A stretch of DNA of 64,000 nucleotides from a virus. Taxonomy: Duplodnaviria > Heunggongvirae > Uroviricota > Caudoviricetes. The notes beneath the pieces are model-generated. The model saw nothing but the letters and a program-made list of their open reading frames with translations. It ran no database searches and had not been told where the DNA came from. This document shows, one piece after another, positions 6,348-55,321 of this stretch. Numbering within the stretch: the stretch's first letter is position 1; every line of letters starts with the position of its first letter. The stretch is from the IMG/VR virus record IMGVR_UViG_3300005535_000017, positions 18,331-82,330 of that record, one strand, 5' to 3'. The position numbers and the translations under genes were made by a program.

Positions 6348-7957
6348 TGTCACAACTGTTCGATGTCGAGCTTCCCCTGTCGGGCGCTGGAGGGCCAACT
6401 CTTAGCGGCGGAGCTCGCTTCCTGTCGGCTGGTGGTGGACTGCCGAATAGAATCACTACCCAAGCAGACGTTCTGATCGACAACGTCATGACGACAAACT
6501 ACGGCGGAGTTATTATCGATCCGACGGAGACATTCGCTTGGATCTCCAATTGGGGCAGTGGCGCGGGAACGATTACTCAATACGCTCTCGCAAGTGGAAC
6601 ACCGGGAACGTCGTTGGCGTACCCAACGATGGGTCTCTTCCCGTTTGACAACAGTCTCTTCTACGCAGCGGACTACACAGACAACCTCATACAAGAGTTA
6701 CAGTGGGACGGCACGCTCGTCAGCTCTACGTCATTCTCGCAGGTCTCTGTCGTGGCGCGAGTTCCTGGCACGACTGGTAAGGTCTGGGGTATTCCATATC
6801 CCGGTGGTGCAGCCACAGAAGTAGCAATAGGAGGAGCTCCGACAGCTCGCACGATTGCCGGAGTTTTCTTTGGGATTTGGGCCACCACAGGTTTCATTTA
6901 CCTGTCGGATATGGTCAACATCTATAAGTATGACGAGCCGACGCTCACGCTCCAAGATACGTGGGCGGTGAGGCAGAATTCTTCTTCACGCCCTGGTGAC
7001 AGTGGGCTTGCTCAGTACGTCAATTGGTTCTTCATCGACAGCAATAACAAGCCAGTGTTGTATGAAGGCTTGCACGGCAATATCGATCGCTTCGCTTCTG
7101 TTGGTGGCACTCCGGCACCGGTCGATAAGCGGCTGGTGTATTCACAGCCACAACTCGGCGGCAGCGGGTCATTCTTTTATCCTGGCGATAACAATATTGT
7201 TTCACCTCCCATCCACTACCTAGCAAACGGTAAGTACGCAGCGTTTGCTGTTCCATGGAATAACGACGCTTCGGATTACACTCATATCAGCGTCCTATTC
7301 AAAAACCTTTTTGGGACGCAGAGAGCTCGTTGGATCTGGAACAATGCGACCGGGCAGACTGCGACGATCACCAGAATCGTTGTTCCAGGGAATCTCGCAG
7401 ATGACCGCGGCAGCACGTATGACCTGAGAAAGGCGCACTGCTTCTACTCGACCGATGGAGGAGCCACCAGAACACCGTTCATGCCGGGTGGAACGCTCAG
7501 TGTTCCCGTCATCAATGGCTCAGCTCTTACAGTCGATGTCGACATTGTGGAAGGGGACGGGCAAGCCACCAACCCGCCGTACATTGGGGGTGATGCTGGT
7601 GAGGGTGTCCATCTTGTCTTCAGTGTCCCGACGGGCGGCGCAGGTATTCCGACCACGAACTTTACGCCAGCGCCGGGAACCCCTCTCAGCCCGCAGCAGG
7701 TGGTTCAGTTCGACGTGATCGATACGACCTCACCCTTCAGAGAAGTCTTCATCGTGGCGTCGTTCGATGGCGGAACTCAGAGAGAGCTCGTCTACGATGC
7801 GGATGGCTTCAATCCTGCCCACTACGCAGGTGTTTCGAACACCAAGACAACGATCACCAATGGCTTCCGATTCACCCTTTTGCGCGACGGCGGCTGGTTT
7901 GGAGCGTTGAGCATCAAGGTGTATGCTATCGACGAAGGCGGCGGTGAAAATCCATGA
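6344..7957 (+). CDS. Putative virion structural protein (beta-rich, propeller-like N-terminus, Ig-like C-terminus)
   Basis: 537 aa, T/G/aromatic-rich beta composition in the virion module. Confidence 0.55.
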   Translation: MMSQLFDVELPLSGAGGPTLSGGARFLSAGGGLPNRITTQADVLIDNVMTTNYGGVIIDPTETFAWISNWGSGAGTITQYALASGTPGTSLAYPTMGLFPFDNSLFYAADYTDNLIQELQWDGTLVSSTSFSQVSVVARVPGTTGKVWGIPYPGGAATEVAIGGAPTARTIAGVFFGIWATTGFIYLSDMVNIYKYDEPTLTLQDTWAVRQNSSSRPGDSGLAQYVNWFFIDSNNKPVLYEGLHGNIDRFASVGGTPAPVDKRLVYSQPQLGGSGSFFYPGDNNIVSPPIHYLANGKYAAFAVPWNNDASDYTHISVLFKNLFGTQRARWIWNNATGQTATITRIVVPGNLADDRGSTYDLRKAHCFYSTDGGATRTPFMPGGTLSVPVINGSALTVDVDIVEGDGQATNPPYIGGDAGEGVHLVFSVPTGGAGIPTTNFTPAPGTPLSPQQVVQFDVIDTTSPFREVFIVASFDGGTQRELVYDADGFNPAHYAGVSNTKTTITNGFRFTLLRDGGWFGALSIKVYAIDEGGGENP

Positions 7958-8292
7958 GTACCTGGAACCAGTGGCCAATAATCGAGCCGGCGCCGCCGTC
8001 GCCGACTCCGCCAACTCCGATCCCAGCCCCGATCGGGCCGCAGCCGCCACCGCTGCCGGTCGTGCCAGCTCCACCTCCTGGCGTTCCCCGCAAGGACGTC
8101 AGGACGCGGATCATCACCAGCGACGGTACAGCGCTCGAGCTCAGAATCCTCGACGGGCTTCTCGTGGATGACGTCCTCATCCAAGGAGCGAAGGCTGAAG
8201 GCTACAGGGTCATGACGGGCAAGGACGTCTTCCCAACTACCGGCCGGGACATCAAGGACTACTTGATCCGACTCGGCTTCGTGACGGAGTAA
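7954..8292 (+). CDS. Pro-rich hypothetical protein
   Basis: ATGA coupling; PPPSPTPPTPIPAP linker followed by a globular C-terminus. Confidence 0.65.
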   Translation: MSTWNQWPIIEPAPPSPTPPTPIPAPIGPQPPPLPVVPAPPPGVPRKDVRTRIITSDGTALELRILDGLLVDDVLIQGAKAEGYRVMTGKDVFPTTGRDIKDYLIRLGFVTE

Positions 8293-9590: not shown

Positions 9591-12500
9591 ATGCACGGAG
9601 TCGGGCAGCAGCTCAAGCTGAGGCTGTTTCTTGAGGGCATCGAGGTCCCCGTCATCGGGGTCACCGTGCAGGTGAGCTTGAACTCGCCGGCGACAGCCGC
9701 GATTCAGATCATCCCTCTCGATAGCATCATGAACTTCAAGCCGAGGACGATGGTCCATGTCTTCTTCTACGACTACACCAACGACCTGCCAGATGCGGTC
9801 CCGCCTGGCGCTGGCCCAGAGACCCAAACGGACGCTTCCATCCCCCTCTCGAACTACAGCCTCTTGTTCTGCGGTGAAGTCATCGGGCTGGCGATGCAAG
9901 AGACGCCCCTCTCCCGCTCCGCGGTTCTGCAGTGCGCGGATTTCTCGACGTACTGGGATACTGCGTACCAGATGATGATCACCTACGGCCCGAGCGGTAA
10001 CTTCCTCACGGAAGAGAGCGCAATTTGGGCCGGCGGGAACGCCATCTTCAACGACATCATCGATGGCCACTCGTCGGTGATGAATACGTACCTCAACCAG
10101 AAGCCGCAGACGCCCGGTCTCCAGAACGTGAAGGGCCTCATGGGAGGCATCATCTCGCTCCTCGAGGCTATGGGTGGCGTCCCGCGGCACACGCACGGCA
10201 TCAACGACTTCTTCACCATTGCCGAGCTCAAGAATCACCTCCTCCAGCAGATCACCGCTGAGCAGAACGACAACACGGCTCAGCGACTCTTCGATGAGAA
10301 GGAGTTCATGGCGTGGCTCGAGCGAGGTATTACCAGCCTTGGAGAGCTCGTCACGTTCCGAGACATGATCAAGCTGCTCTTCAATTGGGTCTACTACGAG
10401 GTGGTGCCGATTACGTCACCTCTCTACGTCCCTGGCGTGCAGCAGACGACCTCGACGAAGAAGGTAACCGTCTCGAGCTCATTCAACTTCCCGGCCGCCG
10501 TCGACACAGAGCTCACCGACCTCGCTCAGCAGGCGAAGAAGCAATTCGACGACGGCAATGCTCAGCTCCACAACCTCGGCTGGATCGCCAGTACGGCTCA
10601 GATCGCGCAGAACCTGATTTCCTCCCTGAACCGTATTCTTCTGACCCCGAACATGAATCCGAAGGTCACCAAGAACCTTCAGAAGGCTATCTCGTTCGCG
10701 CTCAATCTCATTCAGGCGAAGAACCAGCCAACCAAGATCGCCTCCGGGCCTGCGCACATCGGAGACAACTGGACCTCAATCCAGAACGCCCTCAACGATG
10801 CACGTGCGGCTGGCAAGGACCAGGCGAAGAAGACCACCACGCAGAAGACGGTCAACAACCCGCCAGAGCTCGATCGCCTGCAGACCCAGGTCTTCCGGCC
10901 AGATTGCTTCTTTGCTGCTCCTCCGAAGTGCAACGTCATCTTCCCGGAGCAGTACACCCAGTTCAGCTATAGTCGCAACTTCCTTCAGGAAGTGACGCGT
11001 CTTCGTCTGCAGACGGGCATGACCTTCATCCCGTCGGACGAGAAGCTTCTCGCCAACTACCACTACGCTCCATCGATGAAGGAGATCCAAGAGCTCGCCA
11101 AGAAGCAGGGCGCGTCTGGCATCCGGTCTCTTCTGCCGTGGGAGAAGTTCTCCGGCATTCTGCCCAAGTTCGAGCTCGTCTCTGAGGTCAACTACATCGC
11201 CAACAAGCGAGAGGCGCAGATCAAGAAGAACGTGGTGGGCCAGGCGGTCAACTACGCTCAGCGCGCTGCGAACTTCAACTACCTGAAGTACCGCTTCGCG
11301 GCGCGGACACTCGAGGTCTCGCTGAAGTTCAATCCGTTCTTGGTGCCTGGCTTCCCAGCACTGCTCATCACCAAGCCGTTCATTCTCGATCCGCAGTTGG
11401 TCGACGCCGCCCTGGCGGATACGAACAACAGCGAGATCAAGCCGACGGACATGACGGATATCATCGCCAACATTGGGACGCTCGCCTCCGCCTTCAGAGC
11501 GCCGACGCACTACCTCGGCATGATTGCAACGATGACGCACCAGGTGGGCCAAGAGGGAGCGACCACGAGCGTCACGATGACGCACGCCCGGTCGCACCGC
11601 ATCACCGAGGATGACTTCCTGTCGCTCTACGCGGCCCAGTACCAGTCGGATACGCAGAAGACCGAGGTGAGTACGGTCCTCGATGCGGCCTCACTCATTT
11701 CACAGGGCGACTACAAGAACCTCAAGTCTCTCATCGACATCACTACTCAGAATGCGCCTGACGAGGCGAAGCAGATCGCGCAAGACAACCAGCAGGCACA
11801 GCAGAACGTCAATCCGTTCGGCGACCAGCAGCCTCTGGACCCGTGGGAGGCCACGAGCCGGCCGAGTGCTGTCTTCCGTCCGGCAAACCTCGACAGCATC
11901 GCCCCCATCCTTCAAGCGCCCTCCATCGACCTGAGCTCAACCGTGGTGGCGTCTTCGACGCTTGTCCAACCGAGCGGGTCCATCCCTCTTCGAGCCAAGA
12001 CGATTCAGGCGGAGAGGCCGAACGGTACGAAGATTCTCTCCCCCGCCACCGCCGGCAAGCTTCGCGTCGGTCAGAAGGGTCCAAAGGGAGGGACCATCAC
12101 GCAGATCCAGGTGGCCTCCGACCAGGTCATGGCAGTGAGCATCCAGGACCTCGAGTTCGCCGAACAGGGCAAGACTGGACGGAAGCAGAGCGTTCAGACA
12201 GCTCTGAAGCCGAACAAGAACGCCAAGACGGTCTATGTCTGGCAGAAGGCTGTCATCTACGAGCAGCAGACCAGCAACAAGGTTTTGCGCCCCATTCCGG
12301 TTGAAGAGTCGCTGCGGCCGCCCTGGTTCTCGCCGCTCTACTCGAACCTCTTCATCGGGGACAACATCTACCAGCAGTTTTTTGGAACTGGGTCCATCGT
12401 CGATCAGGCCGTGTTCCAGACGCCGTTTGGCACCGGTGCGACGGGGACCAACAGGCAGAAGCAGCGCGAGCTGGTGAGCCAGGTCGAGGCGGCGGACGGT

Positions 12501-12965
12501 GACATTCAGAAGATTCAGCAGATCCTCTCGAATGCCACGCCAGATCAGCTCTCTGACATCCCGTCCATCGAGCAGTCGGCTGACGTCCTCGCCTATCTCT
12601 ACGGCGAGGTGCGGCGTCAGGGCCTGGACGTCCACCGCTTCATTGCGGACTACACCCACCGGCCGGTGGCGACGCTTGAGAACGTCTTGGGGTCTGTCGA
12701 TCTGACATATGAGCAGAACGGCAGCACCCTGAGCAAGACCGCGGGCGTGCCTGGCTTCCACTCGACGGCGGTTGGGCCCTACAGCAACCTCGTTGGTCTT
12801 CTCGACAACCCCGACCAAGAACTCCCTCGTCTCAAGACGAAGGGCAAGAAGTTCGCGATCTCGAAGGCTCTCGACCCGAGACCGGATCGGCGTGCCGCGG
12901 TGCAGGAGTATTCCGATGAGCTTGGCGGAGGTACGGGATCCTTGGGTATCGGGCTCTTAGGCTGA
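9591..12965 (+). CDS. Putative baseplate hub protein
   Basis: 1124 aa; LRLFLEGIEVPV...PRTMVHVF...LFCGEV...LQCADF and LKFNPFLVPGFP..HQV segments resemble hub folds; position. Confidence 0.5.
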   Translation: MHGVGQQLKLRLFLEGIEVPVIGVTVQVSLNSPATAAIQIIPLDSIMNFKPRTMVHVFFYDYTNDLPDAVPPGAGPETQTDASIPLSNYSLLFCGEVIGLAMQETPLSRSAVLQCADFSTYWDTAYQMMITYGPSGNFLTEESAIWAGGNAIFNDIIDGHSSVMNTYLNQKPQTPGLQNVKGLMGGIISLLEAMGGVPRHTHGINDFFTIAELKNHLLQQITAEQNDNTAQRLFDEKEFMAWLERGITSLGELVTFRDMIKLLFNWVYYEVVPITSPLYVPGVQQTTSTKKVTVSSSFNFPAAVDTELTDLAQQAKKQFDDGNAQLHNLGWIASTAQIAQNLISSLNRILLTPNMNPKVTKNLQKAISFALNLIQAKNQPTKIASGPAHIGDNWTSIQNALNDARAAGKDQAKKTTTQKTVNNPPELDRLQTQVFRPDCFFAAPPKCNVIFPEQYTQFSYSRNFLQEVTRLRLQTGMTFIPSDEKLLANYHYAPSMKEIQELAKKQGASGIRSLLPWEKFSGILPKFELVSEVNYIANKREAQIKKNVVGQAVNYAQRAANFNYLKYRFAARTLEVSLKFNPFLVPGFPALLITKPFILDPQLVDAALADTNNSEIKPTDMTDIIANIGTLASAFRAPTHYLGMIATMTHQVGQEGATTSVTMTHARSHRITEDDFLSLYAAQYQSDTQKTEVSTVLDAASLISQGDYKNLKSLIDITTQNAPDEAKQIAQDNQQAQQNVNPFGDQQPLDPWEATSRPSAVFRPANLDSIAPILQAPSIDLSSTVVASSTLVQPSGSIPLRAKTIQAERPNGTKILSPATAGKLRVGQKGPKGGTITQIQVASDQVMAVSIQDLEFAEQGKTGRKQSVQTALKPNKNAKTVYVWQKAVIYEQQTSNKVLRPIPVEESLRPPWFSPLYSNLFIGDNIYQQFFGTGSIVDQAVFQTPFGTGATGTNRQKQRELVSQVEAADGDIQKIQQILSNATPDQLSDIPSIEQSADVLAYLYGEVRRQGLDVHRFIADYTHRPVATLENVLGSVDLTYEQNGSTLSKTAGVPGFHSTAVGPYSNLVGLLDNPDQELPRLKTKGKKFAISKALDPRPDRRAAVQEYSDELGGGTGSLGIGLLG

Positions 12966-12975
12966 CAAACCACTT

Positions 12976-13004
12976 CCCGCCAGGCCCTGCGGCGGGTATC
13001 TTCT
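12976..13004 (+). terminator. Possible terminator hairpin
   Basis: CCCGCC/GGCGGG stem followed by TATCTTCT after the hub gene. Confidence 0.35.
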
Positions 13005-13018
13005 GGTACGGAGGACGC

Positions 13019-13234
13019 ATGGACTTCACGAAGAAAATGGCGGCAGCTTTCGAAGACGAGCTCAAGAAGATCGCCTTCGAGAAGCAAGCCAGCGCAGCAG
13101 CCGCGGTGGCGAAGAAGCCGTCGCTCCTCGTCCCTGGTCTGGTCGCCGGCTCTCTCGGTACCCTGGCTCTCCAGCGCGCCCACAAGGACTGGCGGATGGG
13201 TCGCGCCATGCGGATGCAGAACCAGGCCTACTGA
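13019..13234 (+). CDS. Small protein with FEDELKKIA motif; putative internal virion protein
   Basis: GGAGG RBS; motif at aa 11-19; C-terminal hydrophobic helix. Confidence 0.7.
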   Translation: MDFTKKMAAAFEDELKKIAFEKQASAAAAVAKKPSLLVPGLVAGSLGTLALQRAHKDWRMGRAMRMQNQAY

Positions 13235-13845
13235 TGAACCTCTTGGGCTACAGGGCCTTCACGGCCGAGCTGATCAAGATCGCCACCGAGGTTCAGGACG
13301 CGGACATTCGGGCGATGATGGCCGAGGCAAAGGGCAAGGAGTACCTGCCCGGCGGCCAGATCAGATCGAACGCCGAAGTCGAGACCAACTTCAAGCCGAA
13401 GCTTGCCATGGGCTTCATGGGCTACACCCCGCCCAGCGCCTACAACTGGCGCGGCAAGAAGCCGACGGCGACAGGCACTCCCTACGAGACTGCCTCCAAC
13501 TTTGCCTCTGCAGCACTCAAGGGCGGCATGACGGGGGCTGGTGCGGCGACGCTGGCGCACACCCTCCATCACGGCCACGATTTCAAGATTCCACCGAAGC
13601 ACCTGGGAAAGGCCGTGGCGCTCGGCAGCGGTGTTGCTCTCGCCGATCGGGCGCTCCGCCGGCGGGCGGTCATCAAGCAGCAGAAGATGAAGACTGCAAT
13701 GCTCGGCTCCAGCACCTTCACTCCTGCTCGAGCACTCCAGACGGGGCAGCAGCAGGGACACTTCGAAAACAAGCTACACCGCGGCGTCGTGAAGTCGATG
13801 CCCGGCATGATCGGCCGCGAGTCCAGCGCGCCACAAGGAGTCTGA
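13234..13845 (+). CDS. Protein with FTAELIKIA motif; putative internal virion protein
   Basis: TGATG coupling; motif at aa 9-17; further KLA and KTA sites; Gly/Ala hydrophobic segments. Confidence 0.7.
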   Translation: MNLLGYRAFTAELIKIATEVQDADIRAMMAEAKGKEYLPGGQIRSNAEVETNFKPKLAMGFMGYTPPSAYNWRGKKPTATGTPYETASNFASAALKGGMTGAGAATLAHTLHHGHDFKIPPKHLGKAVALGSGVALADRALRRRAVIKQQKMKTAMLGSSTFTPARALQTGQQQGHFENKLHRGVVKSMPGMIGRESSAPQGV

Positions 13846-13846: not shown

Positions 13847-14230
13847 ATGCTGCGTCGAGACGACTACATCAAGATGCTGGAGAAGCGGGCATCGATCTCC
13901 GATGGCGGGAAGATCGGCCCGACGTTCGACCACGACGTCGACAGCGCGGCCGTCGCCAACTCCGAGCACGACAAGAACCTCAACGACAACCGCAATACGC
14001 TCGGCACCCTCTTCAAGAACATGGGAGAGGCTCAGAAGGTCGAGACGCGGTTTGCCAACAAGTGGTTCCCGTCGGACAAGTTCGAGAAGGACACGTCAGC
14101 GCCCCTGCTCAAGGTGGCGATGGCAGTCCTGAACGAGTCGAGCACGTTCCAGGCATATCCGACGCATTACAAGGCTGCGGCAGTGCGCAGCTTCATCAAC
14201 GAGCTGGGCGCAATCCGCACGGGTGGCTGA
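13847..14230 (+). CDS. Hypothetical protein (EKRA near N-terminus, FINELGAI at C-terminus)
   Basis: Operon coupling. Confidence 0.7.
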   Translation: MLRRDDYIKMLEKRASISDGGKIGPTFDHDVDSAAVANSEHDKNLNDNRNTLGTLFKNMGEAQKVETRFANKWFPSDKFEKDTSAPLLKVAMAVLNESSTFQAYPTHYKAAAVRSFINELGAIRTGG

Positions 14231-15048
14231 TGCTCAACCGGCAGTTGGCGCACATCCCGGACTACCACACGCAGATCCTCGATCTCTTCCTCGATCAGCA
14301 CGTCAAGACAGCCGCGCCGAAGAAGTCGCGGGAGGAGATGAAGGAGACGCAGAAGAAGGAGCTCGAGCTCTGGCACCATTGGAACACCCATGGTCAGAAG
14401 CCGGAGCACCTCATCCCTCTGTACGAGAGCTACAAGCCACTTCTCGTTCGAGAGGCGAATAAGTACGCCAACAAGGTCGAGATTCCAACCGCCGCCATCC
14501 ATCACGAGATTGATCGGCACTTCGTCAACGCTATCAAGACCTTCAACCCCAAGCGCGGAACTCAGCTCAACACCTGGGTCCAGACGAACCTGCAGAAGTC
14601 GTCTCGCTACATCAAGACCTACCAGAACATCGGCAAGATCCCCGAGGGGCAGATCTCCCAGATTCGTCGATTTGATGCGGCGAAGGAGCATCTGATGAAC
14701 CAACTCGGGCACGAGCCGGATACCAAGACGTTGGCCGACCATCTTGGTTGGCCTCAGCGCCGCGTCGTTCAGATGATCAAGGAGCGCCGGCGAGATCTTC
14801 CAGCGTCTGGTTTCGAGAGCGACCCCGCTGAGCTCATGACGCCCAAGGAGCTCGAGGCGATCAAGCTGATGCAGTACGACCTCACGCCCGAAGAGCGGAC
14901 GGTCTACGAGTACACCTTCGGCATGAATGGCAAGCCTCGCCATCAGCCGGGCCAGATCGCCAAGACGACCGGCATTCACCCTTCCAAGGTCTCCCGCATC
15001 CGTAATCGCCTCGTCGACAAGCTGAAAGAGGCAATGGAGCTGGTCTGA
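14230..15048 (+). CDS. RNA polymerase sigma-70 family factor (regions 2, 3, 4; no region 1.1)
   Basis: Start at TGATG overlap 14230. Region 2 AIKTFNPKRGTQLNTWV, region 3 QLGHEPDTKTLADHLGW, region 4 HTH LTPEERTVYEYTFG...QIAKTTGIHPSKVSRIRNR. Confidence 0.85.
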   Translation: MLNRQLAHIPDYHTQILDLFLDQHVKTAAPKKSREEMKETQKKELELWHHWNTHGQKPEHLIPLYESYKPLLVREANKYANKVEIPTAAIHHEIDRHFVNAIKTFNPKRGTQLNTWVQTNLQKSSRYIKTYQNIGKIPEGQISQIRRFDAAKEHLMNQLGHEPDTKTLADHLGWPQRRVVQMIKERRRDLPASGFESDPAELMTPKELEAIKLMQYDLTPEERTVYEYTFGMNGKPRHQPGQIAKTTGIHPSKVSRIRNRLVDKLKEAMELV

Positions 15049-15275
15049 TGGCTGGTGCAGCGCAGAGACTCCAAGAGCTCAAAGATGCCGCCGACGACTG
15101 GTTCTCGAAAGAGAAGAACCGGTTGAATGCACAATTCGACTTCCTCGACAACATCTCCAAGAAGCGAGGAGGCAGCGTCGGTCTTCAAGACGCCAACGCT
15201 CAGGGCGCTTCGAAAATTCTGGCCAACTCGATCAACGACTATCTCGGCTCCCCGCTAGAACCTTCTAACGAGTAG
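15048..15275 (+). CDS. Hypothetical protein (75 aa)
   Basis: TGATG coupling to the sigma gene. Confidence 0.65.
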   Translation: MAGAAQRLQELKDAADDWFSKEKNRLNAQFDFLDNISKKRGGSVGLQDANAQGASKILANSINDYLGSPLEPSNE

Positions 15276-15330
15276 TTCTCTTCCCAGTCCTTCCCCATCA
15301 GGGGAGAATGCTGGACGGAGGACTCCACAA

Positions 15331-18300
15331 GTGTCGGTACCGACGAGGCTATGCCGAGCTGCTGTGTGGGCGCTTGCGCTCTTCACAGCATCTGCAGCAC
15401 TTGCACAATCCCCTTCGCCGACGCCGTCATACACCACGATTCAAAATGGTGGAACGGCTCTGCCTCAGAGGCGCATCGCCAATTTCAGCGGTGCGCTCCA
15501 GGCGACGGATAATTCCGGGTCGAACAGAACCGACGTCACTATTCCGAACGGCTCGATCGGCAATGCGCTTCTCGCCAACTCGACGATCAGCATCCAGGGA
15601 TCGTCTCCACTCGGTGGTGGCAGCCCGACCGTTCCTCTTGGTGGCTCTGTTCTTCTGACCTGCGCTACCTGCCTCACCGGCACTCCTACCGCCGGCGGCG
15701 ACCTCATGTACTCGATCAGTGGTGGCCAGGCCATGGCCCCGCTGGCAGATGTTGCGGCCGGCTCCTATCTGCGAAGCGGAGGTGTTGGAGCTCTGCCGCT
15801 GTGGTCGACGCTCAAACTTCCGAATGCGGCTACTACCGGCGATATTCTCATCGCCACTGGTACGAACTCGATTGGCAGCTTGGCGGATGTCGCGACTGGA
15901 TCAGTTCTCGTCTCTGGCGGAGTTGGAACGGCGCCGACGTGGAGCACGTCTCTTCCATCTGGCGTGCTCCCCAGCGTTGGCCCGGGTGCCGGAACGTACA
16001 CCTGGTCAACGGGTGATAGCGTCGGACTCGATGCGCAGGGACGAGTCACTGCCGTCACAAACGTCACCCGCACGCTGACAGGCGGAACAGGCATCAATGC
16101 GATCGGAGACCTCTCCGCCGACCGCACGATCTCAGTCAATCAGGGATTCAGCCCAACCTGGACCGGAACGCATACGTTTACGCTGGCCCCAGTCATTGGT
16201 GACGGTACGGGAACGACGAAATCGATCTCGTTCGACAACCTCGCCGGGCTTGGAACGCTGAGCTGGAATCCGAGCACGACGAGAACGCTTACCCTCCCAG
16301 ACGCAACCGATACCATTGTCGGCCGGGCTACCGCTGACACGCTGACGAACAAGACAATCAGCGGCGCCTCCAACACGCTGACCAACATCGGCAACGGCTC
16401 GCTGACCAACAGCTCCGTCACCATCAACACCACAGCACCGGTGGGCGGCGGAGGAACAGTCTCTCTTGGCGGCTCGCTTACGCTGACTTGCAGCACTTGC
16501 CTTGTTGGAACACCGACGGCAACTGGCGACATCCTGTACTCGACCGCGGGAGGCCAGTCACTCTCTCCGCTCGCCGACGTCGCGGTCGGATCATACCTGC
16601 GGAGCGGAGGCGTTGGTGCTGCGCCTCTTTGGTCTACACTCATTCTCCCGAACGCAGCGACTACGGGTGACCTATTCGCGGCGAGCGCCTCGAATACGAT
16701 GGGTCGAATCACCGCTGTTGCGGTGAACCAAGTCCTTCTGTCACAGGGCGTCGGGACTCTTCCTGCGTGGGGAACTGTCCCGAATGCGGCTCTGACGAAC
16801 AGCTCCATCACCATCTCTACAACTTCGCCAATCACTGGCGGTACCACAGTGTCGCTGGGCGGTACTGTCACTCTCGCCTGCGCGACTTGCATCGTTGGTA
16901 CACCGTCAGCGATCGGCGATATCCTCTACTCGACGAGCGGCGGTCAGGCCATGACCGCGCTCGCAGACGTTGCTGCTGGCTCGTACCTCCGCTCGGGAGG
17001 CTCGTCTGCCGCACCGCTCTGGTCGACGCTGACTCTTCCGAACGCCGCAACGACGGGCGATCTGTTGGCTGCCACAGCCACGAACGCAGTCGGCCGCATC
17101 ACTGCTGTCGCGGTGAATCAGGTTCTTCTGTCGCAGGGCACAGGAACACTACCTGCTTGGGGAACCGTTCCGAACGCAGCACTGACGAATAGCTCGGTCA
17201 CGATCAGCACGACCGGCCCTCTTGGAGGCGGTGGGTCCGTCTCCTTGGGCGGCACGCTTACTCTTACCTGCACAACCTGCCTCACTGGTACCCCGACAAC
17301 TACCGGCGACCTGATGTACTCGACGTCCGGCGGACAGGCAATGTCTCGCCTCGCCGACGTCACTGCTGGCTCCTATCTACGGTCTGGCGGAACGGCGGCT
17401 GCTCCAGTCTGGTCGACACTGGCCTTGCCCAATGCGGCGACAACGGGCGACATCCTTTACGCAACTGGATCGAATACAATCGGCAACCTTGCAGATGTCG
17501 CGACGAACCAAGTGCTGCTCTCTGGCGGCGTTGGTGTTGCGCCGTCTTGGGGTACAGTTCCGAATGCGGCGCTAGCCAACAGCTCCATCACCGTCACGGG
17601 AACGGCGGGGCAGATCAGCGTCAGCGGCAGCCCTGTCTCTCTCGGAGGCACGGTCACCATCGGTCTTCCGAACGTCGGCCCTGGTGCTGGCACGATCGGC
17701 GGTGGCGGCAACTTCATCAGCTCAGTCACTCTCGATGCGCAGGGCCGGGTTACGGCGGCTACATCGAGCGGAGTTAGCGGTACGATCGGTGGCTTGACCT
17801 CTGGGCGTATCCCTGTCGCCTCGAGCTCGACGACACTTGCCGACTCGAATCTGACGTGGGCGAGCAATACTCTCGATGCAACCGTCAGCGCTGTCACTCT
17901 CGGTGGCACAATGCTCACACTTCAGTGGGCAAGTGGAACGAGCAAGACGCTCAATGTTGCGACGGCTGCGGCTGACACTGCTGGAACGACTTTCACCGTT
18001 CAGGCTGGTAATGGCGGTGCCGCTTCAGCGACGGGTGGTGGCAGCGGCGCAACTCTTAACCTGAACGGCGGAACCGGCGGCGCGGGCACTGCCTCGCTGA
18101 CTGGTGGCGCGGGTGGCCAGAGTGTCATCCAGGGTGCTTCTGGCGGCGCTGGCACGGCTACGGCCCTTGGTGGCAACGGTGGCGCAGGTACTGTTCGTGG
18201 TGGGCCTGGTGGAACGAATAACGGCGCAGGTGGTGGTACTGCTGGTACTGCATCAATTCGAGGCGGCACGGGTGTCGCCCCCAGCGGCAGCAATAACACC

Positions 18301-43700: not shown

Positions 43701-44407
43701 ATCGCTTTGCGCTTGGAGCGCACGGCTATCCGACCGGCTACACGTTCGATATCGCCGAGTACTGGGATCCTGTCCTAGTCAAGCGCTGGCTTTCGACCGG
43801 GGCATACCCGCGCGTCAGCCCGACATCGGGTAACCTGACTACGGCCGGTCAGCCAAGCACGTCTTGGCTGCAGGTTGCTGGCACTCCGCTCGCCATGCTG
43901 AATAATGGCTGGGGCTGGGGCTGGAACTCGTATCTCGATCTGATCATCCCGTTCCACATCATGATGACCGATCAGGTGAACGGTCATTTCGAGATGATCA
44001 TGGACGACAATACCGGAGGAGGAAAGATCATCCTCGGCTACAACTCCGGCTCCATCGGTGGAACCGGATGGCAGGTGTTCTCGTCGCGAGACGTCTCTCA
44101 CAACAACATTGCGAGTTTCGGCTCAGCACTTACGAACAGTGCCTGGACGAAGGTCCAGTTTGAGTACCACGGCAGTGCTACAGCCATCGGGACGGCAAAC
44201 GGTGCGGCGACAATCCGTGTCTACATTGGTGGTTCTCTTGCCGTCGAAATCATCAATAATCCGGGCGCGTTCATCTATATGCCGGACAACGACAACGTGG
44301 TGAACGAGATTCTCATCAATCTATCGCGCTCCAGTGGAACCGGTAATATCAACCTCGGACCGATGCGCTTCTCATACAACTACCTTGATGACAGCATCAA
44401 CGGCTGA
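40721..44407 (+). CDS. Putative tail fibre / receptor-binding protein (1228 aa)
   Basis: AGGAG RBS; follows the collar gene; Trp-rich beta modules (W..D repeats) and a lectin-like C-terminus. Confidence 0.6.
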   Translation: MATNVDPRFARGSLNGNASVPRLSNPQIRGSVRRSDPDGSHAQPFWSGLNGTSLVVEVGTIDGGILATVTINFTSNFYSNTVTTVNAASPTHLKWLESDGFPCIQDLHSGAKNYIKITGGTAAPIFGMPVFPSPGGMSRAGDLQPAPGDKTQANPQTTELLTHDENLSTAAVNRAIVGSLQGVDQILSALDREVACWRTIEFTEDSFSGMLAPTNVNSDPTIANLRVHTGAIAQAIADGYSYADIIEIQNSSRQTYYVTNLGTTSKVVPLGVSYGGNGFAPISGPITWGSTGSGIRPDTTAAAQSLKQASTAITSIQGSTLIASGATFQTNRIQPGDHILISGANNNSPLNHNGEFVVINVASETEIEVRPLGYTESKIDPANDAPPALNQSINPGEVYGNISVYIGWGFPLGGKTATTADSFRIWIGLGVLTGGTNAWVRLPIATTLREVISNGFLENPNSSHDPQIAFKNLANEFTQRNQFDAGITLPTLPLNGGFALASRVLAPVTGNDDPFFVLMIETDGVDLFGANYPMRVYFNRTTGGITITTNSKHNRSTDVWTKDVNGTAASRMDMNPAGIKYFQQTASDNSLITSDAWPEIPFIISAASLSSTTGGATPRFELPPTNEGSGAIRLSLLFESNTVGSVGKTRLYVNAQATAYVFTTNAVWDWTSQTWSKDSGSARSTKFTIGVAAGLSGFECRGRSTAGGTWNDSSWDEIALSQFDANIGYTIKGIVSLISVGTPNTPLLFFDGINDQLLSKVNDNVGGSIRVYNRSSSGIVISANCSWSTGGGGVWTADTPGNGGSAIKLIGSQVQFFYNTGGTTWNDSLVGGGWTGYNFLINPTGLDLPHSLVNLGLSLTGASGARTARISGPTYGAGEGSSLLVTLLEEWDPAVGGAKSRIYSGDTNLERRHVINARWDGTNWNQDNAALASYFYQFGSTERVGFKAAGSSPWTEANWSIVDSRDLSTGNQLVKSLKSDLTPLFRAQNAGGKNRFALGAHGYPTGYTFDIAEYWDPVLVKRWLSTGAYPRVSPTSGNLTTAGQPSTSWLQVAGTPLAMLNNGWGWGWNSYLDLIIPFHIMMTDQVNGHFEMIMDDNTGGGKIILGYNSGSIGGTGWQVFSSRDVSHNNIASFGSALTNSAWTKVQFEYHGSATAIGTANGAATIRVYIGGSLAVEIINNPGAFIYMPDNDNVVNEILINLSRSSGTGNINLGPMRFSYNYLDDSING

Positions 44408-44979
44408 TGGACTTCACAACTCTTCATAGCTTCGGTGTGGAGCTGCTCAAAATCGCCGAGACGAAGAGCGAACGAGAGCTCTACCAGCGCGTCAAGAAAC
44501 AGTCTCCGGTCGAGGTGAAGAGGCTGGATGAGGCCGCTGAGTACGGCGGTGGCTACTTCGACCCATCAGGTGAAGGTCACATCGGCGTCTCGGACAAGAA
44601 GTTCGACGCCCTCGCTCATGAGGTTGGGCACGCCAAGAATCATCAGAAGATCTGGGGAAAGCTCATCCAGAGTGTTCCGGCTCGCCTTGCTTTCCAACTC
44701 GCTCCTGCTGCTGGCCTCGTTGCAGGCATGGCAGTAGCTAAAGGAAAGAAGTGGCCTCTGATCATCCCTGCAGCCGCGGTGGCGCCGATCCTCTTGGCAG
44801 AGGCTCTGGCGACCAACACGGGCCACAAGGTCTTGGAGAAGGTGAAGGCGAAGCCGGAGGAGGTGGAGAAGTACCGGACGAACTTGCGCTCGGCCTTCTC
44901 CACCTACCTCCAGACTCCAATTGCTGCTGCGGCTACTGGAACGCTTGGCTACTTGCTGCAGCGGGCGACGGCAGCCTAA
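44407..44979 (+). CDS. Putative zinc metallopeptidase with FGVELLKIA motif and hydrophobic helices
   Basis: LAHEVGH (HExxH), hydrophobic segments, then ILLAEALAT as a candidate third-ligand Glu. Confidence 0.6.
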   Translation: MDFTTLHSFGVELLKIAETKSERELYQRVKKQSPVEVKRLDEAAEYGGGYFDPSGEGHIGVSDKKFDALAHEVGHAKNHQKIWGKLIQSVPARLAFQLAPAAGLVAGMAVAKGKKWPLIIPAAAVAPILLAEALATNTGHKVLEKVKAKPEEVEKYRTNLRSAFSTYLQTPIAAAATGTLGYLLQRATAA

Positions 44980-45350
44980 CCATCTCTCGCTGAGATCGCG
45001 ACCTTCATGATCACGTCGAGCATCTTGTCTCTCGACCAGGCCGGTACCCCATTCACTACTGGAAGGGTGATGCCGAGCTGGGTGAGCAGTCCGTAGAGCT
45101 CCTGGTCGCTCATCGAGAGAAGCTGCTCGCTGGTGATCTCGGTGAAGTCTTCCGGCTCCTCCGTATTAGGGCGCCGCGGTAGAGCAACCTGGTCGGCCGG
45201 CACAGGATAGTTGCTGACCTGTACCGGCTTCTCGGGCTCTGGCGGCGCTACGAAGGGTACGGGAGGCCGATCTCCTTGAACGTCGCCTCGGTCCCGAGTT
45301 GCTGGGGCTGCTGGGGCAACTGCTTCTCGTAGTACGGGCGGATCATGCAC
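44976..45350 (-). CDS. Hypothetical protein with C-terminal HeH/Rho-N-like helical pair (start uncertain)
   Basis: LLSMSDQELYGLLTQLGI...SRDKMLDVIM. Confidence 0.5.
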   Translation of the reverse strand: MHDPPVLREAVAPAAPATRDRGDVQGDRPPVPFVAPPEPEKPVQVSNYPVPADQVALPRRPNTEEPEDFTEITSEQLLSMSDQELYGLLTQLGITLPVVNGVPAWSRDKMLDVIMKVAISARDG

Positions 45351-46444
45351 GACACCGCCGCGTCCGTGCCCTTGCTCAGATGGAGAACCTGGCCCACCAT
45401 CGAGAGAAGGCCCTCGAGCTGTCGGCTCTGGGCGGCGACCAGGCCCTTCAGCTCGTTGATCTGAGCCTGGAGAGCCGCGGTGTCACCACCACCCTGCTGC
45501 TGTTGCGGCTGACCCATGGCCGGAGGCCCGAAGCCAGCCATCGCCGGCGGGGCGCCGAACCCCTGCGGCTGCTGAGCGTTGCCGAGGGGCAGCGCCTGCT
45601 GTCCGGGGAGCACGCCCGGCTGCGGCGGAGCGCCTTCCGCCGCCTTGCCGCGACCACGGCGATTGCTCGGAGCCTGCGCCGGCGGGGCCGGAGGCTGGCC
45701 GGGAGGGGCCATCTGCGGCTGCTGGGGCGGAGCACCCATCGGAGGAGGCGCCATGGTCGGGGGCGCGCCCATCGCCGGCGGAGGAGCACCCATGGACGGC
45801 GGGGCCATCTGCGGGGGCGGGATCGGCGGGGGAGCGCCCTGCGGCGGGAACGAGGGCTGTTGGGGCTGCTGGTACTGCTGAGGCGGCGGCTGCATCGGGG
45901 GCGGCCCGAACCCCTGCTGGGGCGGGGCAAAGCCCTGCTGAGGAGGAGCGTAGCCCTGCGGCGGCTGCTGCGGGGCGTACCCGGGCGGCTGGGGCGGCGG
46001 ACCGAACCCGGCCGGAGGCGGAGGCGGGTTGTAGCCGGGAGCGCCGGGGGGCTGACCGTTCGGGGGACCCATCTGCTGGAAATCGGCCATGATGATTCCT
46101 TCTCCTTCTTTGGGTTGCAGTGCTCGGCCGTCTTGGACGAACACAGCGAGCCTTTGGATGAACGAGTTGAAGTACGAGTCGTCGGTGTCGAGCTCCGGCT
46201 GGATCCCTAGCAGGTCGCCGGCAATCTGCTTCTTGCGGATCAGCTCGTCCAAGATCCAGTGCGTGACGGTGATGGGCTTCATCATCCACACGAACTGGTA
46301 GTCCAGACCAAGCTGCCCCCACGCGAATCGACGTTGCACGTGTGACGTCTTACAAACGTCGCGCACGTGCTTCTCTGCTTCGATTCGGGTGAGCAAGGAT
46401 CCGTCCGGCTTCGTGAGCTCGAGAGTGGGTAGTCCGTGATGCAT
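45248..46444 (-). CDS. Pro/Gln/Gly-rich low-complexity protein with C-terminal coiled coil
   Basis: About 200 aa of PPQ/GFG/GYA repeats; LQAQINELKGLVAAQSRQLEGL heptads. Confidence 0.8.
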   Translation of the reverse strand: MHHGLPTLELTKPDGSLLTRIEAEKHVRDVCKTSHVQRRFAWGQLGLDYQFVWMMKPITVTHWILDELIRKKQIAGDLLGIQPELDTDDSYFNSFIQRLAVFVQDGRALQPKEGEGIIMADFQQMGPPNGQPPGAPGYNPPPPPAGFGPPPQPPGYAPQQPPQGYAPPQQGFAPPQQGFGPPPMQPPPQQYQQPQQPSFPPQGAPPPIPPPQMAPPSMGAPPPAMGAPPTMAPPPMGAPPQQPQMAPPGQPPAPPAQAPSNRRGRGKAAEGAPPQPGVLPGQQALPLGNAQQPQGFGAPPAMAGFGPPAMGQPQQQQGGGDTAALQAQINELKGLVAAQSRQLEGLLSMVGQVLHLSKGTDAAVSCMIRPYYEKQLPQQPQQLGTEATFKEIGLPYPS

Positions 46445-46657
46445 CTACTCCCCCTTCGTGTCGAGATCCGGCGGCCTGTTCACAAGAACACGCGCACCGG
46501 CGGAGCCGAACTTATACAAGATCTGCTGTCTCGCTGCCACTGCTGCTTCGTGGGCCTCCTTCCAGTCCCCACACATGTAATTGGTCATGAGCTTCTGCTC
46601 GTCGACCTTGGTGCAGTCGCCGAGCTGCTTGCAGTTGACACACGCCGGCTGAATCAT
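46445..46657 (-). CDS. Small Cys-rich protein (70 aa)
   Basis: ATGA-coupled start 46657; CVNC...C...C. Confidence 0.65.
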   Translation of the reverse strand: MIQPACVNCKQLGDCTKVDEQKLMTNYMCGDWKEAHEAAVAARQQILYKFGSAGARVLVNRPPDLDTKGE

Positions 46658-46998
46658 TTCAGCGCGAAGTGCGGCTTGGCGTTCATGTAGCAAGTGAGGT
46701 GTCTCCCCTCGGGGCATGCGTAGACCGTGCAGTGCCCCTTCTGCGGACCGCTGCAGGGAAGCTGGGAGTTCACCATCATCCAGTTCTTGAGAATCCAATC
46801 CTGAAGCTCCGCTCTCGACTCCATGTACAGAAAGCTGTCATCAGGAGGATTGCCAGTCTCTATGAAGTAGATGACGGTCTCCCGTGGCACGGACCGCTTG
46901 AGGCGCATTGGACGACTCCAAGCCGAAGAGAGCTCGAGACGGGCAAGCTCCCAGAGTTCGGTGTCGTTCAGGTCCTGCAGATCTATCTGTCCTTCCAT
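46654..46998 (-). CDS. Cys-rich protein (114 aa)
   Basis: GGAGGA RBS before ATG 46998; C-terminal C...HC...C...H..C. Confidence 0.7.
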   Translation of the reverse strand: MEGQIDLQDLNDTELWELARLELSSAWSRPMRLKRSVPRETVIYFIETGNPPDDSFLYMESRAELQDWILKNWMMVNSQLPCSGPQKGHCTVYACPEGRHLTCYMNAKPHFALK

Positions 46999-47402
46999 TT
47001 CTCTTCCTCCCACCAGCCCGGTTCGGTCCTGGGAGTTTTCTGGATGTTCCTGTTGGGGCAACTGCTGCAGTACTCGTACGGGGAAACGAGTAGGCACTGC
47101 TCCCGTCGAACCATCTCGTATTGCGGGATCTTCTTGTCGATTCTGTCGCTTATCGACTTCCAGCGGGGGCAGGCAACCATCTGCCCGCCGATGTTGTTCT
47201 GGAACTTCACGGTGAAGTTTCCGTGCTCGCAGCTTTCACAGGCAGGTAGCGGGCGCCCTAAACAAACAGCCCGAACCTGCTGATGAACCTCCGTGCCGGA
47301 TTTGGGAGCATCGCCATCGCACAGTACTAGGAGTCCGCGAGATCCTCGCTCGACGTCCCCGAAGACACGCTTGTACTCTTTATGGTCGTGCCCGTGGGAC
47401 AT
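46983..47402 (-). CDS. Cys-rich protein (139 aa)
   Basis: GGAGGT RBS before ATG 47402; CESC, CPRW, CSSC. Confidence 0.7.
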   Translation of the reverse strand: MSHGHDHKEYKRVFGDVERGSRGLLVLCDGDAPKSGTEVHQQVRAVCLGRPLPACESCEHGNFTVKFQNNIGGQMVACPRWKSISDRIDKKIPQYEMVRREQCLLVSPYEYCSSCPNRNIQKTPRTEPGWWEEEKWKDR

Positions 47403-47412
47403 CGAGCACCTC

Positions 47413-47925
47413 CTAGACGCCAAATGTTGCGGGATGAGCCTTCTTCAGACGGATGCAGATCCCGCTGTGGCCTCCAACAAGATCGGCGCTGCACTTATCG
47501 TGGATCTCACGAAAGTTCAGCGAGTCGTCGAGGGCCAGGGCTTTGAATACTGCGTCCGTCACCAGCTTGATACGGTTTTGTACATCCATCTTCTTGTACC
47601 GTGTTTTCGCTGGGTTCTTGACGGCCTTGCCGAACGTGGTGTTTAGGAGATCTTCGTTGTCGAAGAAGAACGTCATCCACATCTCGAGGATCGAGTTCGG
47701 GTCGTTGTCGATCGTCTTGCAGAAGGACTGAATCTGCATCATGTACGGTGCTGCCACCTGCTGCGTGAAGCGATTCTTCCAAGCCTCGGCGTCTTTGCTC
47801 AGAAACCTGCCCCGACCGCCTCTGCCGTTGACGTAGATGTGGTTCGAGCTCGGCGGCAGGAAAGGGATGACGATCTGCAGCCCGTCAGGTGGCGTGTACT
47901 CTGGAGGCGTCGGTAGAGTGAGCAT
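47413..47925 (-). CDS. rusA: RusA-family Holliday junction resolvase
   Basis: IPFLPPSSNHIY...KDAEAWK...KMDVQNRIKLVTDAV...LDDS. Confidence 0.75.
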   Translation of the reverse strand: MLTLPTPPEYTPPDGLQIVIPFLPPSSNHIYVNGRGGRGRFLSKDAEAWKNRFTQQVAAPYMMQIQSFCKTIDNDPNSILEMWMTFFFDNEDLLNTTFGKAVKNPAKTRYKKMDVQNRIKLVTDAVFKALALDDSLNFREIHDKCSADLVGGHSGICIRLKKAHPATFGV

Positions 47926-48707
47926 CAGGGCATGTTCCCGGCAAACCCGACGGCCCAGTCCTCGAGCATCTTGTTGACGATGTCCAAGCCCTCGGGGAAG
48001 TTGAAGACCTTGCTGAAGCGAGAGTCGGGGATACCTCGCTGCTCCTGCTCACTGCGGTGCCCTTGCAGCCCGACATTGGAGTTGTCCTGCTTCACTCGAG
48101 AGAGTCGTCTCGTCCTGAGTGAGTAGCCTCCGCGGGCCTCCGACTTGTCGAGCTCGTTGATGAAGCGCTGGTCGGGAATGACGATGCCATTCTTCGGCGT
48201 CCCAGGCTCGATGTTGGTTCGAACTCCAAGATCGGCTTCGTACACGTATCCCTGGGCGAGAAGAGGGAGCTGGACGTCGAACAAATAGTCCACCCACATG
48301 TCCGGGTAGACCTCTCGTCCCCACTCCGTGCCGAGCGTCTGTAGGATGATGCGAGCGGAGATCTTCTCCGGGTACTGCTTCTGAAGCTGGGTGAACCATC
48401 GATGCAGCCCGTCGAACGCTCTGGCGCGAACGTCCGGGCCCAGGCTCTCGGGAACCACTCGAGCGGTGAACTGATGCAGGATGTGCATCTGCGCCCAGGC
48501 CGTGGCCCAAAGTGGCACCGCGTCGAGCGTCTCCTCCCTCTTGCTCGATGGCCCCCAGAGGTTGTCGAAGGGCACGCCGAAGAGCTGGCGGACGAAGCGC
48601 TTCATTGGATCGGCGAAGGCGATCTTCACGAGACCAAGTCGCTGGGCGCACCAGTCGGCGACGTAGTCCTTTCCGTTGTCAGCTTCGCCGTTGACGGTCA
48701 AGAGCAT
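47925..48707 (-). CDS. Deoxynucleoside monophosphate kinase (T4 gp1-like)
   Basis: GEADNGKD, IAFADPMK, RIILQTLGTEWGR, IPDQRFINE. Confidence 0.85.
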   Translation of the reverse strand: MLLTVNGEADNGKDYVADWCAQRLGLVKIAFADPMKRFVRQLFGVPFDNLWGPSSKREETLDAVPLWATAWAQMHILHQFTARVVPESLGPDVRARAFDGLHRWFTQLQKQYPEKISARIILQTLGTEWGREVYPDMWVDYLFDVQLPLLAQGYVYEADLGVRTNIEPGTPKNGIVIPDQRFINELDKSEARGGYSLRTRRLSRVKQDNSNVGLQGHRSEQEQRGIPDSRFSKVFNFPEGLDIVNKMLEDWAVGFAGNMP

Positions 48708-48716
48708 GGTCTTCTC

Positions 48717-49319
48717 CTAGGGGCGATGAAAGAGCGGGCCACTGACGTTGCCCACAGTAGTCTGGCGCTTCTGCCGCTCGATGTCTTGCTGACGCTGGCT
48801 GATGCGGCGAGAGACGGCCGAGTAGCTCTGTTCCGCTGTCTCGGCGATTGCTTTCACGTGGCGATAGTACGTCTCGTGATAGATGGCCTCTGCCTGCGCT
48901 TCGACGTAGCGCCGGTCGATGAGCACCATCGCCTTTCGCTCCGGCTCCGGTCTCTTCTTCTCACCATCCTTCTTGTGAATCATGAGGAGGTGCGCGTTGA
49001 CGAACTCGAGCTTCTCGTTCGCGATCCGCATCGAAGAGTGTGCCTCAGCGAGCTGCTGCTGGACGTAGTCCATCCAGCCAGAGAGCAAACCGAGATAGTA
49101 GCCGAGCCAATCGTCATTGAGGGCCGTCAGGTCAGTTGGGATCCTGCCATTGAACGGCACCGTCTGACCAGTGGCTTGGTCTTGGACTTGGGGTGGGTTC
49201 GGGGCGCCACCAAAGCCCTTCTGCAGCAGCATGGTCTGGACCTTCATGGGCACCGCGTTGAACATCCTCGACGCCTCCTCGAAGGAGATGTCGGTTTGGA
49301 GATTCTGAAATCCTTGCAC
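48717..49319 (-). CDS. Long helical protein, possibly a UvsY-like recombination mediator
   Basis: Extended coiled coil with DRRYVEA...SRRIS; sits in the RecA module. Confidence 0.4.
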   Translation of the reverse strand: MQGFQNLQTDISFEEASRMFNAVPMKVQTMLLQKGFGGAPNPPQVQDQATGQTVPFNGRIPTDLTALNDDWLGYYLGLLSGWMDYVQQQLAEAHSSMRIANEKLEFVNAHLLMIHKKDGEKKRPEPERKAMVLIDRRYVEAQAEAIYHETYYRHVKAIAETAEQSYSAVSRRISQRQQDIERQKRQTTVGNVSGPLFHRP

Positions 49320-49320
49320 G

Positions 49321-50737: not shown

Positions 50738-50907
50738 CAATGCACCTTCACTATGTAGCCGGACTCTTTGAGGATGATGAACATGTTCCCCACGAAGAGT
50801 GCGCAGCAGATGAACTTCATGCTGATGTTCAAGAGCGTATCCGCCTTGAAGAACAGGCCCATGAAGAGAAAGAAGAGCGCGTTCAGACAAAGCACTAGTG
50901 CCATCAT
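50737..50907 (-). CDS. Small two-TM membrane protein (56 aa)
   Basis: Manual translation MMALVLCLNALFFLFMGLFFKADTLLNISMKFICCALFVGNMFIILKESGYIVKVH; coupled to neighbours at both ends. Confidence 0.7.
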   Translation of the reverse strand: MMALVLCLNALFFLFMGLFFKADTLLNISMKFICCALFVGNMFIILKESGYIVKVH

Positions 50908-51125: not shown

Positions 51126-51133
51126 GCTTCCTC

Positions 51134-52584: not shown

Positions 52585-52595
52585 TCTATCCTCCT

Positions 52596-52808: not shown

Positions 52809-52816
52809 GTCGTCTC

Positions 52817-54847: not shown

Positions 54848-54850
54848 GGC

Positions 54851-55314: not shown

Positions 55315-55321
55315 TCTTGGG

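Follow-up and report, generated by a model that had tools for sequence, protein, structure and literature searches.

Reviews describe large phages as carrying either a divergent multisubunit RNA polymerase (RNAP) of their own that works without a sigma factor, or sigma factors that hijack the host enzyme (PMC7824862, PMC13282480). Here, we analyzed a 64,000-nucleotide stretch (hereafter the window) covering positions 18331–82330 of a 210,330-bp uncultured phage record with direct terminal repeats (IMG/VR virus record IMGVR_UViG_3300005535_000017; positions in the whole genome are marked G000). The window contains a sigma-70-family gene at 14230–15048 on the plus strand, and its lineage fits neither group of the reviews: a canonical three-domain sigma is combined with a fused bacterial-type RNAP core, and both genes lie among virion genes. 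The multisubunit virion RNAPs of phiKZ and AR9 and the single-subunit virion RNAP of N4 follow the logic considered here, being made late, packaged, and injected for phage-specific early promoters. These systems contain no sigma-70-family protein, on which the reviews are explicit, whereas the window phage has one enzyme with a canonical sigma and a bacterial-type core. Dedicated sigma-like specificity subunits do accompany the phage multisubunit cores of phiKZ (gp68) and AR9 (gp226), but these belong to the non-virion enzymes. T4 gp55, SPO1 gp28 and gp33/34, and the sigmas of RNAP-less jumbo phages are likewise sigma-70-family proteins that alter promoter specificity; however, phages of this kind encode no RNAP, their sigmas work with the host core, and gp55 is a minimal sigma. 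To our knowledge, none of these host-directed sigmas is established as a working part of the virion.

The closest described relatives are found in Salmonella phage Arash and in Vibrio phage D69. The Arash protein Gp10, recorded as ‘RNA polymerase sigma factor RpoS’ (OQ632216), and its unannotated D69 ortholog are homologous to the window sigma (profile E-values of 1e-31 and 6e-28, respectively). In both phages, as in the window, the sigma gene follows a gp8-like large virion protein and precedes the baseplate genes, and the genome also encodes a related bacterial-type RNAP and an SNF2 helicase. The Arash and D69 sigmas differ in being 229–234 amino acids (aa) long, without the N-terminal peptide and linker of about 35 aa found in the window, and the beta and beta' subunits are separate genes in Arash but fused in the window phage. 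Yersinia phage YerA41 also combines a bacterial-type RNAP with its own sigma, and in Cobetia phage Carin-5 an annotated sigma abuts the beta/beta' genes. These two sigmas are not detectably of the same family, as our sigma profile found no match in either phage; moreover, unlike in the window phage, the RNAP subunits are split and differently ordered, and the YerA41 RNAP genes were scored as early.

Based on the evidence below, the window sigma is likely the specificity subunit of the phage's own single-chain RNAP. Our preferred explanation adds that it is made late and probably packaged with this enzyme, a combination to which we give about even chances.

The gene at 14230–15048 encodes a true but divergent sigma-70-family protein of 272 aa with regions 2, 3, and 4. 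Pfam Sigma70_r3 (PF04539) matched residues 144–187 with 29.2 bits (cut-off, 25.3), and PHROG 351 ‘RNA polymerase sigma factor’ matched residues 64–270 (4.9e-14). Regions 2 and 4 were weak when searched alone (Sigma70_r2, E = 0.008, below the cut-off; Sigma70_r4, PF04545, E = 0.023; HTH_23 was also weak). A profile of 81 homologs aligned over positions 58–266, corresponding to regions 2–4, with the RpoS, RpoD, and SigA chains of solved holoenzymes in PDB (E ~1e-9); positions 58–181 covered region 2 (E ~1e-9), and the alignment extended through region 4 of RpoS. The AlphaFold2 (AF2) model had a mean predicted local distance difference test score (pLDDT) of 82 and comprised a region-1.2-like helix and domains 2, 3, and 4, and the top Foldseek matches of the model were all sigma factor chains. 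The region-1.2-like helix and domain 2, which form the predicted core-binding surface, were placed by profile and AF2 at residues ~34–131 (14329–14622); domain 3 at residues ~139–185 (14644–14784) by PF04539 and AF2 helices; and the helix-turn-helix of domain 4 at residues ~205–271 (14842–15042) by the PDB profile to position 266, the weak HTH_23 and PF04545 matches, and AF2 helices. Compared with the TYATWW motif of RpoS in the HMMER alignment, the conserved W116 falls on the Tyr and Thr-Asn takes the place of the two Trp residues, which argues that the −10-melting surface is divergent. Neither the family hidden Markov model (HMM) on called proteins nor six-frame Pfam r2/r4 scans detected a second sigma in the 210-kb genome.

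The sigma gene is translationally coupled on both sides. At 14228–14232 (TGATG), the TGA of a 127-aa open reading frame (ORF) (14228–14230) overlaps the sigma ATG (14230–14232), and at 15046–15050 (TGATG), the sigma TGA (15046–15048) overlaps the ATG of a 75-aa ORF. The preliminary description, which placed a sigma-70-family gene coupled within a structural operon among small proteins bearing a motif, was accurate in these respects; of the small proteins, the 71-aa and 203-aa neighbors carry a strict FxxELxKIA motif near residue 9. The start at 14230 is real because the N-terminal extension is conserved as protein in relatives. For the same reason, an internal ATG at 14339 (M37) was ruled out, as the 36 residues upstream of it are conserved in more than 80 relatives; a longer GTG-started ORF from 14062 was also discarded, as it runs out of frame across the 127-aa gene, which is conserved.

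More than 160 metagenomic proteins (263–294 aa) matched the sigma with identities of up to 85%, and many of them were located on contigs of 180–211 kb. In three such contigs (L007–L009), the order was the same as in the window, with the same start overlaps: a gp8-like large protein, a 65–70-aa protein, a protein of ~200 aa, a third small protein, the sigma, and a 75–84-aa protein. In the window, the first of these, a syntenic anchor upstream of the sigma, is a 1124-aa virion protein (9591–12965, plus strand) with an N-terminus similar to that of Arash gp8 (‘cell wall hydrolase, structural protein’). The gene order was conserved from 85% down to ~29% identity. Among 50,697 phage records, Arash gp10 was the single tblastn match (29% identity, 5e-16) and occupies the same place after gp8; a profile search added the ortholog at the same place in D69. 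When 20 kb of the window was compared with phage records by megablast, no match was obtained. While a single-sequence scan of viral contigs with the sigma returned nothing, an alignment-based scan returned five records. In a distant relative with a 100% complete genome (G004), the sigma was 36% identical. By homology, tail/baseplate position, and co-occurrence with RNAP, the window sigma is of the Arash Gp10 type.

The RNAP is encoded outside the window, ~60 kb from the sigma (G000 92844–99200, plus strand), as a 2118-aa ORF in which the beta catalytic domain is followed by matches to beta' domains 1–5. Pfam matched Rpb2_6 (2.4e-61) and all five Rpb1 domains; no alpha subunit homolog was detectable. 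The ORF was homologous to Arash gp206 and gp216 and to the enzymes of Vibrio phages D69, D148, and D181. The fused RNAP was present in four of the five IMG/VR records carrying the sigma family, the exception being a 65% complete fragment, and in all three sigma-bearing records with completeness of at least 90%. Arash and D69 also carry both sigma and RNAP.

A complex model of the sigma with RNAP residues 1030–1480 scored 0.68, while the best of three controls scored 0.00; of 80 solved complexes, 58 attained this mark, compared with 2 of 110 mismatched pairs, and as sigma and core form a textbook pair that has been solved abundantly, this result may reflect likeness to solved holoenzymes. The runs agreed in at least 30% of contacts, with a partner pLDDT of at least 66. 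The predicted interface joined RNAP residues 1256–1290 with sigma residues 56–103, which is the canonical site between region 2 and the clamp helices.

Published particle proteomics, although not clean, were in line with packaging. In sucrose-gradient particles of Arash, the sigma Gp10 was detected with 24 unique peptides and 100% coverage, and beta, beta', and the Gp217 helicase with 128, 40, and 38 unique peptides, respectively, compared with 2–11 for likely carry-over enzymes (PMC10585845). For YerA41, an unrelated phage, the sigma g019 was reported to be encoded late, in the midst of structural genes, and to be particle-associated and ‘likely injected’; the RNAP subunits were also particle-associated (PMC7354516). 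Considering these data, the position of the gene among structural genes, and the promoter-box distribution described below, a virion-delivered role of the window sigma is plausible, and we consider its packaging and injection to be evenly balanced between true and false. In the window phage, the ortholog of Arash gp217, which is among the best-detected particle proteins, is an SNF2 helicase encoded next to the RNAP.

A promoter-like box, (T)CGG(A/G)GATAAGA, without a conserved −35 element was found 15–100 nt before many genes. GATAAG occurred 63 times in the genome, including 41 copies within the ~17% that is intergenic, and nearly all copies face minus-strand small genes (137–178 kb), isolated minus-strand genes, or the head of the replication module. 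Two of them, at 1043 and 2484 of the window (both minus strand), face two minus-strand genes to the left of the structural block, and another (GCAAAAACTCCAAATCCCCGGGATAAGG; G000 83188, minus strand) is located 858 bases past the window end and heads the replication module. No GATAAG with a G(A/G) prefix was found on the plus strand ahead of the sigma, RNAP, terminase, and capsid blocks. Sigma-70 requires T at the last −10 position. As the box has G at this position and no −35 element, its reading by the host RNAP is not obvious, and the phage holoenzyme is a candidate reader. The sigma and RNAP genes are both in late-looking plus-strand blocks that lack the box, so this reader would apparently be produced exclusively together with the late genes; a phage holoenzyme that reads GATAAG would thus have to arrive with the particle, by the logic of the N4 and phiKZ virion polymerases. 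In a late-promoter search, (C/G)GTAGA(A/C) or TAGAAT-like boxes turned up before the capsid gene, the first structural gene, and a small number of other genes, too rarely to define a promoter class. At the borders of the small-gene cluster around the sigma, we found no sigma-70-like promoter or intrinsic terminator. The searches there returned just a hairpin on the minus strand and a weak promoter-like site that lies within the next gene; the fold at 12960–13025 was no better than shuffled sequences, and the hairpin at 15270–15335 had z = −2.2.

Taken together, the preferred course of events would be as follows. The sigma would be translated late, coupled to proteins of the tail/baseplate module, and its region 2 would dock on the clamp helices of the phage polymerase. 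The holoenzyme, probably with the neighboring SNF2 helicase, would most likely be carried in the particle and, once delivered with the DNA, would fire the single-box (T)CGG(A/G)GATAAGA promoters of the replication module and of the small early genes. On its Lys/Pro-rich linker, the conserved N-terminal helix would act as a tethered interaction peptide.

This N-terminal peptide comprises residues 1–28 (14230–14313) and ends in ILDLFLDQHVKTA; the extension bearing FLDQHVKTA up to residue 28, as pointed out in the preliminary description, amounts to ~35–38 residues relative to the Arash and D69 sigmas, which begin at residues 36–39 of the window sigma and lack the peptide. More than 160 metagenomic relatives have the peptide in common. 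Across 81–120 homologs, the consensus was (I/L)LDxFLx(1–5)KEA, and within the 81 sigma sequences, K26 was invariant and D18 and L21 were conserved in at least 90%. The peptide is followed by a Lys/Pro-rich linker, APKKSREEMK (14314–14343), the length of which varies among relatives, with insertions of up to ~30 aa; the preliminary description placed a putative mature start of the protein near APKK. In the AF2 model, residues 12–25 formed a free, low-confidence helix (pLDDT 45–60 over the peptide and <50 at residues 24–28) that was not packed against the sigma body, and the helix was also outside the predicted polymerase interface. The peptide thus looks like a lineage-specific tethered interaction motif on a flexible linker.

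Five proteins of the genome carry a strict (A)FxxELxKIA tag starting at residues 9–11, namely the 71-aa and 203-aa proteins, two products of the head/RNAP region, and the protein encoded from 44407, and the tag was kept in their orthologs. The 71-aa protein (13019–13234, plus strand), the first of the small-gene cluster of the sigma, has the tag AAFEDELKKIA (31.9 bits) and a Gly-zipper hydrophobic segment, and its tag was retained in L007, L008, and L009. The 203-aa protein (13234–13845, plus strand) carries RAFTAELIKIA (29.1 bits). The 190-aa protein (44407–44979, plus strand), which is the final gene of the structural block and had no Pfam or PHROGs match, carries HSFGVELLKIA (27.6 bits). 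The 127-aa protein (13847–14230, plus strand) has a tag-like C-terminus (FINELGAIRTGG); in L008, the C-terminus of the ortholog is DEIEKIAAFV, a perfect copy, and in L009 a separate 73-aa ORF with an N-terminal tag takes its place just before the sigma. From these sequences, the tag at this junction can apparently occupy the C-terminus or shift between ORFs. The T4 capsid-targeting sequence on internal proteins and the protease-trimmed head or ejection proteins are comparable in that otherwise unrelated late proteins have a short amphipathic N-terminal peptide in common, always at the same position, but the FxxELxKIA tags have no sequence relationship with them, and the window sigma is not a scoring member. 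No FxxELxKIA tag was seen among the N-termini of Arash gp2–gp13 that were inspected, with the rest of the Arash genome unscanned.

The N-terminus of the sigma of the distant relative G004 contains QALEWVLGKIA, which scored 12.8 bits at the usual position and ranked 10th of 202, among the clear tags; the sigma peptide may hence be a diverged derivative of the FxxELxKIA tag. The peptide may serve as a particle-targeting or processing signal related to these tags, a role that we consider less likely than not.

Additional proteins with similar N-termini were observed near the RNAP. The adjacent SNF2 helicase (G000 103790–105247) starts with a weak tag (SRLATNLGKIA, 7.5 bits), whereas the tag of its G004 ortholog (G004 155605–157950) is strong (LTAFEDELEKEA, 22.5 bits). 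Downstream of the spike and RNAP genes, a 672-aa protein (G000 100353–102371; L011:1151–3166) starts with MNLFLDQDFKPTFEKVAMP, close to LDLFLDQHVKTAAP of the sigma, and its G004 ortholog with MNLYLDELPELDDGFRKMAG; it may be a second member of the sigma-type peptide class. A 277-aa protein (G000 102497–103330; L011:3295–4125) contains a Peptidase_C39 domain (Pfam, 2.6e-14) and has a degenerate N-terminal tag of its own (TAFSDEFQQIQ). C39 peptidases cut double-glycine leader peptides, and the core of these leaders is similar to E-L-x-K-I, the core of the strict tag. The candidacy of this protein as the tag-processing enzyme was weakened, as no Gly-Gly follows the tag and no C39 homolog was found in G004, which has at least nine tags, in Arash, or in D69. 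Separately, an 801-aa protein (G000 113857–116262; L013:1998–4400), which is not a portal, matched the head-maturation-protease family PHROG 18299 at residues 73–219 (2.4e-6) and a domain of minor head, polyvalent, and DarB-like proteins at residues ~350–490, and its residues 26–250 were 40% identical to Arash gp222.

Several observations weigh against a packaged sigma that acts with the phage RNAP. In the Arash preparation, 116 of 252 proteins were listed as ‘virion’, including ribonucleotide reductase, kinases, and ligases, and the authors allow for carry-over (PMC10585845); similarly, the sigma and host RNAP that co-purified with particles of a Twort-like Staphylococcus phage were judged to be contaminants (PMC5618024). 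The complex model leaves room for host-core binding as well. Nothing links the sigma to the GATAAG box, and the box was dropped as a conserved signature of the sigma since it was not enriched in G004, which has four GGGATAAG copies. The proposal of the preliminary description that the sigma is ‘tagged like head cargo’ was also not statistically supported for this copy: in the position matrix, the five strict copies scored 27–32 bits and the window sigma −4.1 bits (rank 67 of 216), the gapped HMM gave −0.2 bits, and just 11% of the sigma family members exceeded the null 95th percentile. Because the Arash and D69 sigmas lack the peptide, it appears dispensable for whatever brings Arash Gp10 into particle preparations. 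Finally, a lone sigma may serve late promoters or both promoter classes.

In the main alternative, the sigma would serve the phage RNAP as a late, or middle-to-late, factor and would not be functionally packaged; host RNAP would read the early genes, the phage RNAP and sigma would accumulate later and drive the structural operons in a positive loop, and any sigma in particle preparations would reflect carry-over. Phage sigmas of known function, such as T4 gp55 and SPO1 gp28/gp34, are middle or late factors, and this precedent agrees with the late-looking operon around the sigma gene, the noise of particle proteomics in the field, the supported partnership with the phage RNAP, and the weak TAGAAT-like boxes before some plus-strand operons, including those of the first structural gene and the capsid gene. 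However, such a factor would face a start-up problem, as the sigma gene lies 11 kb inside the operon to be switched on, without a promoter of its own, and the RNAP gene in the plus-strand late block faces the same problem. The doubtful fit of GATAAG to the host RNAP also argues against it, as does the coverage of the sigma, beta, beta', and helicase in Arash, which is among the best of all particle proteins. We regard this alternative as doubtful. In the opposite direction, the particle may package a complete bacterial-type holoenzyme (the sigma, the beta-beta' core, and the SNF2 helicase) that starts the GATAAG promoters without host RNAP, with the FxxELxKIA and LDxFL..KEA peptides acting like leaders that address the cargo; this extended version is a tentative possibility that we would not put at even chances.

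Two further alternatives assign the sigma to the host RNAP. According to the preliminary description, the sigma alone would be packaged and injected and would redirect the host core to early promoters as a minimal alternative to a virion RNAP. The late gene position and the N-terminal peptide would suit such a role, and binding to a bacterial core is conceivable given the alignment of all three domains with RpoS, RpoD, and SigA over regions 2–4. Nevertheless, the phage encodes a complete catalytic core, which is inherited together with the sigma across the lineage and is predicted to bind sigma region 2, so the sigma is not a minimal alternative to a virion RNAP; furthermore, nothing is ‘replaced’ in Arash, where the RNAP subunits are the most abundant in the particle preparation. 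Thus, of the preliminary interpretation, a real sigma encoded with late virion genes and a plausible virion-delivered role were retained, while the redirection of the host core in place of a virion RNAP was abandoned as very improbable. Alternatively, the sigma could redirect host RNAP to late promoters in the style of T4 gp55 or SPO1 gp34, with the phage RNAP working without it as in phiKZ and AR9, which would agree with reviews that assign no sigma to RNAP-encoding jumbo phages and the host RNAP to sigma-encoding ones (PMC7824862, PMC13282480). Those reviews, however, concern the split and highly divergent phiKZ-type enzymes, whereas the RNAP here is of the bacterial type with a predicted sigma-docking coiled coil; given also the strict co-occurrence of sigma and RNAP and the lack of any other specificity factor in the family HMM and six-frame Pfam r2/r4 searches, we consider this scenario highly unlikely.

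The association of a phage sigma with particles has already been published, as a table entry for Arash and in a sentence for YerA41; the present analysis adds a large uncultured clade, the conserved N-terminal peptide, and the fused RNAP partner. A packaged holoenzyme would represent a third route to host-independent early transcription and, given the reviews' statement that RNAP-encoding jumbo phages have no sigma, the first virion-borne sigma-dependent RNAP; it would also offer structural and biochemical work a compact bacterial-type RNAP made of two proteins. If the sigma is just a late factor, it would be an ordinary phage sigma with an unusual partner. As distant relatives are in culture (Arash and Vibrio phages D69, D148, and D181), the question is directly testable.

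With respect to the remaining genes, the plus strand at ~2553–44979 of the window forms one long virion-gene block, a tail/baseplate operon of roughly 42 kb. A 75-aa protein (15048–15275, plus strand) directly follows the sigma in all relatives examined, namely L007, L008, L009, and the distant G004, and contains the motif ..F(D/S)FLDxISKKRGG..GLQDANAQGAS; it had no family match in Pfam or PHROG and could be a partner of the sigma, such as an anti-sigma factor or chaperone. A 112-aa ORF at 7954–8292 (plus strand) has a Pro-rich N-terminal half (PSPTPPTPIPAPIGPQPPPLPVVPAPPPG) that was not present in the 68–72-aa orthologs of L007, L008, and L009 and may represent a lineage-specific extension or a mis-set start. 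The virion block also encodes a 428-aa homolog of the Arash structural protein gp6 and, downstream of the sigma, a 2270-aa Gly-rich fiber-like ORF and a baseplate-J/wedge protein (Pfam, 1e-6; PHROG, 7.5e-17). The minus strand from 45248 to 64000 corresponds to the replication module, which encodes DNA polymerase A, primase, a DnaB-like helicase, a RecA/UvsX-like protein, and a Cas4-like nuclease.

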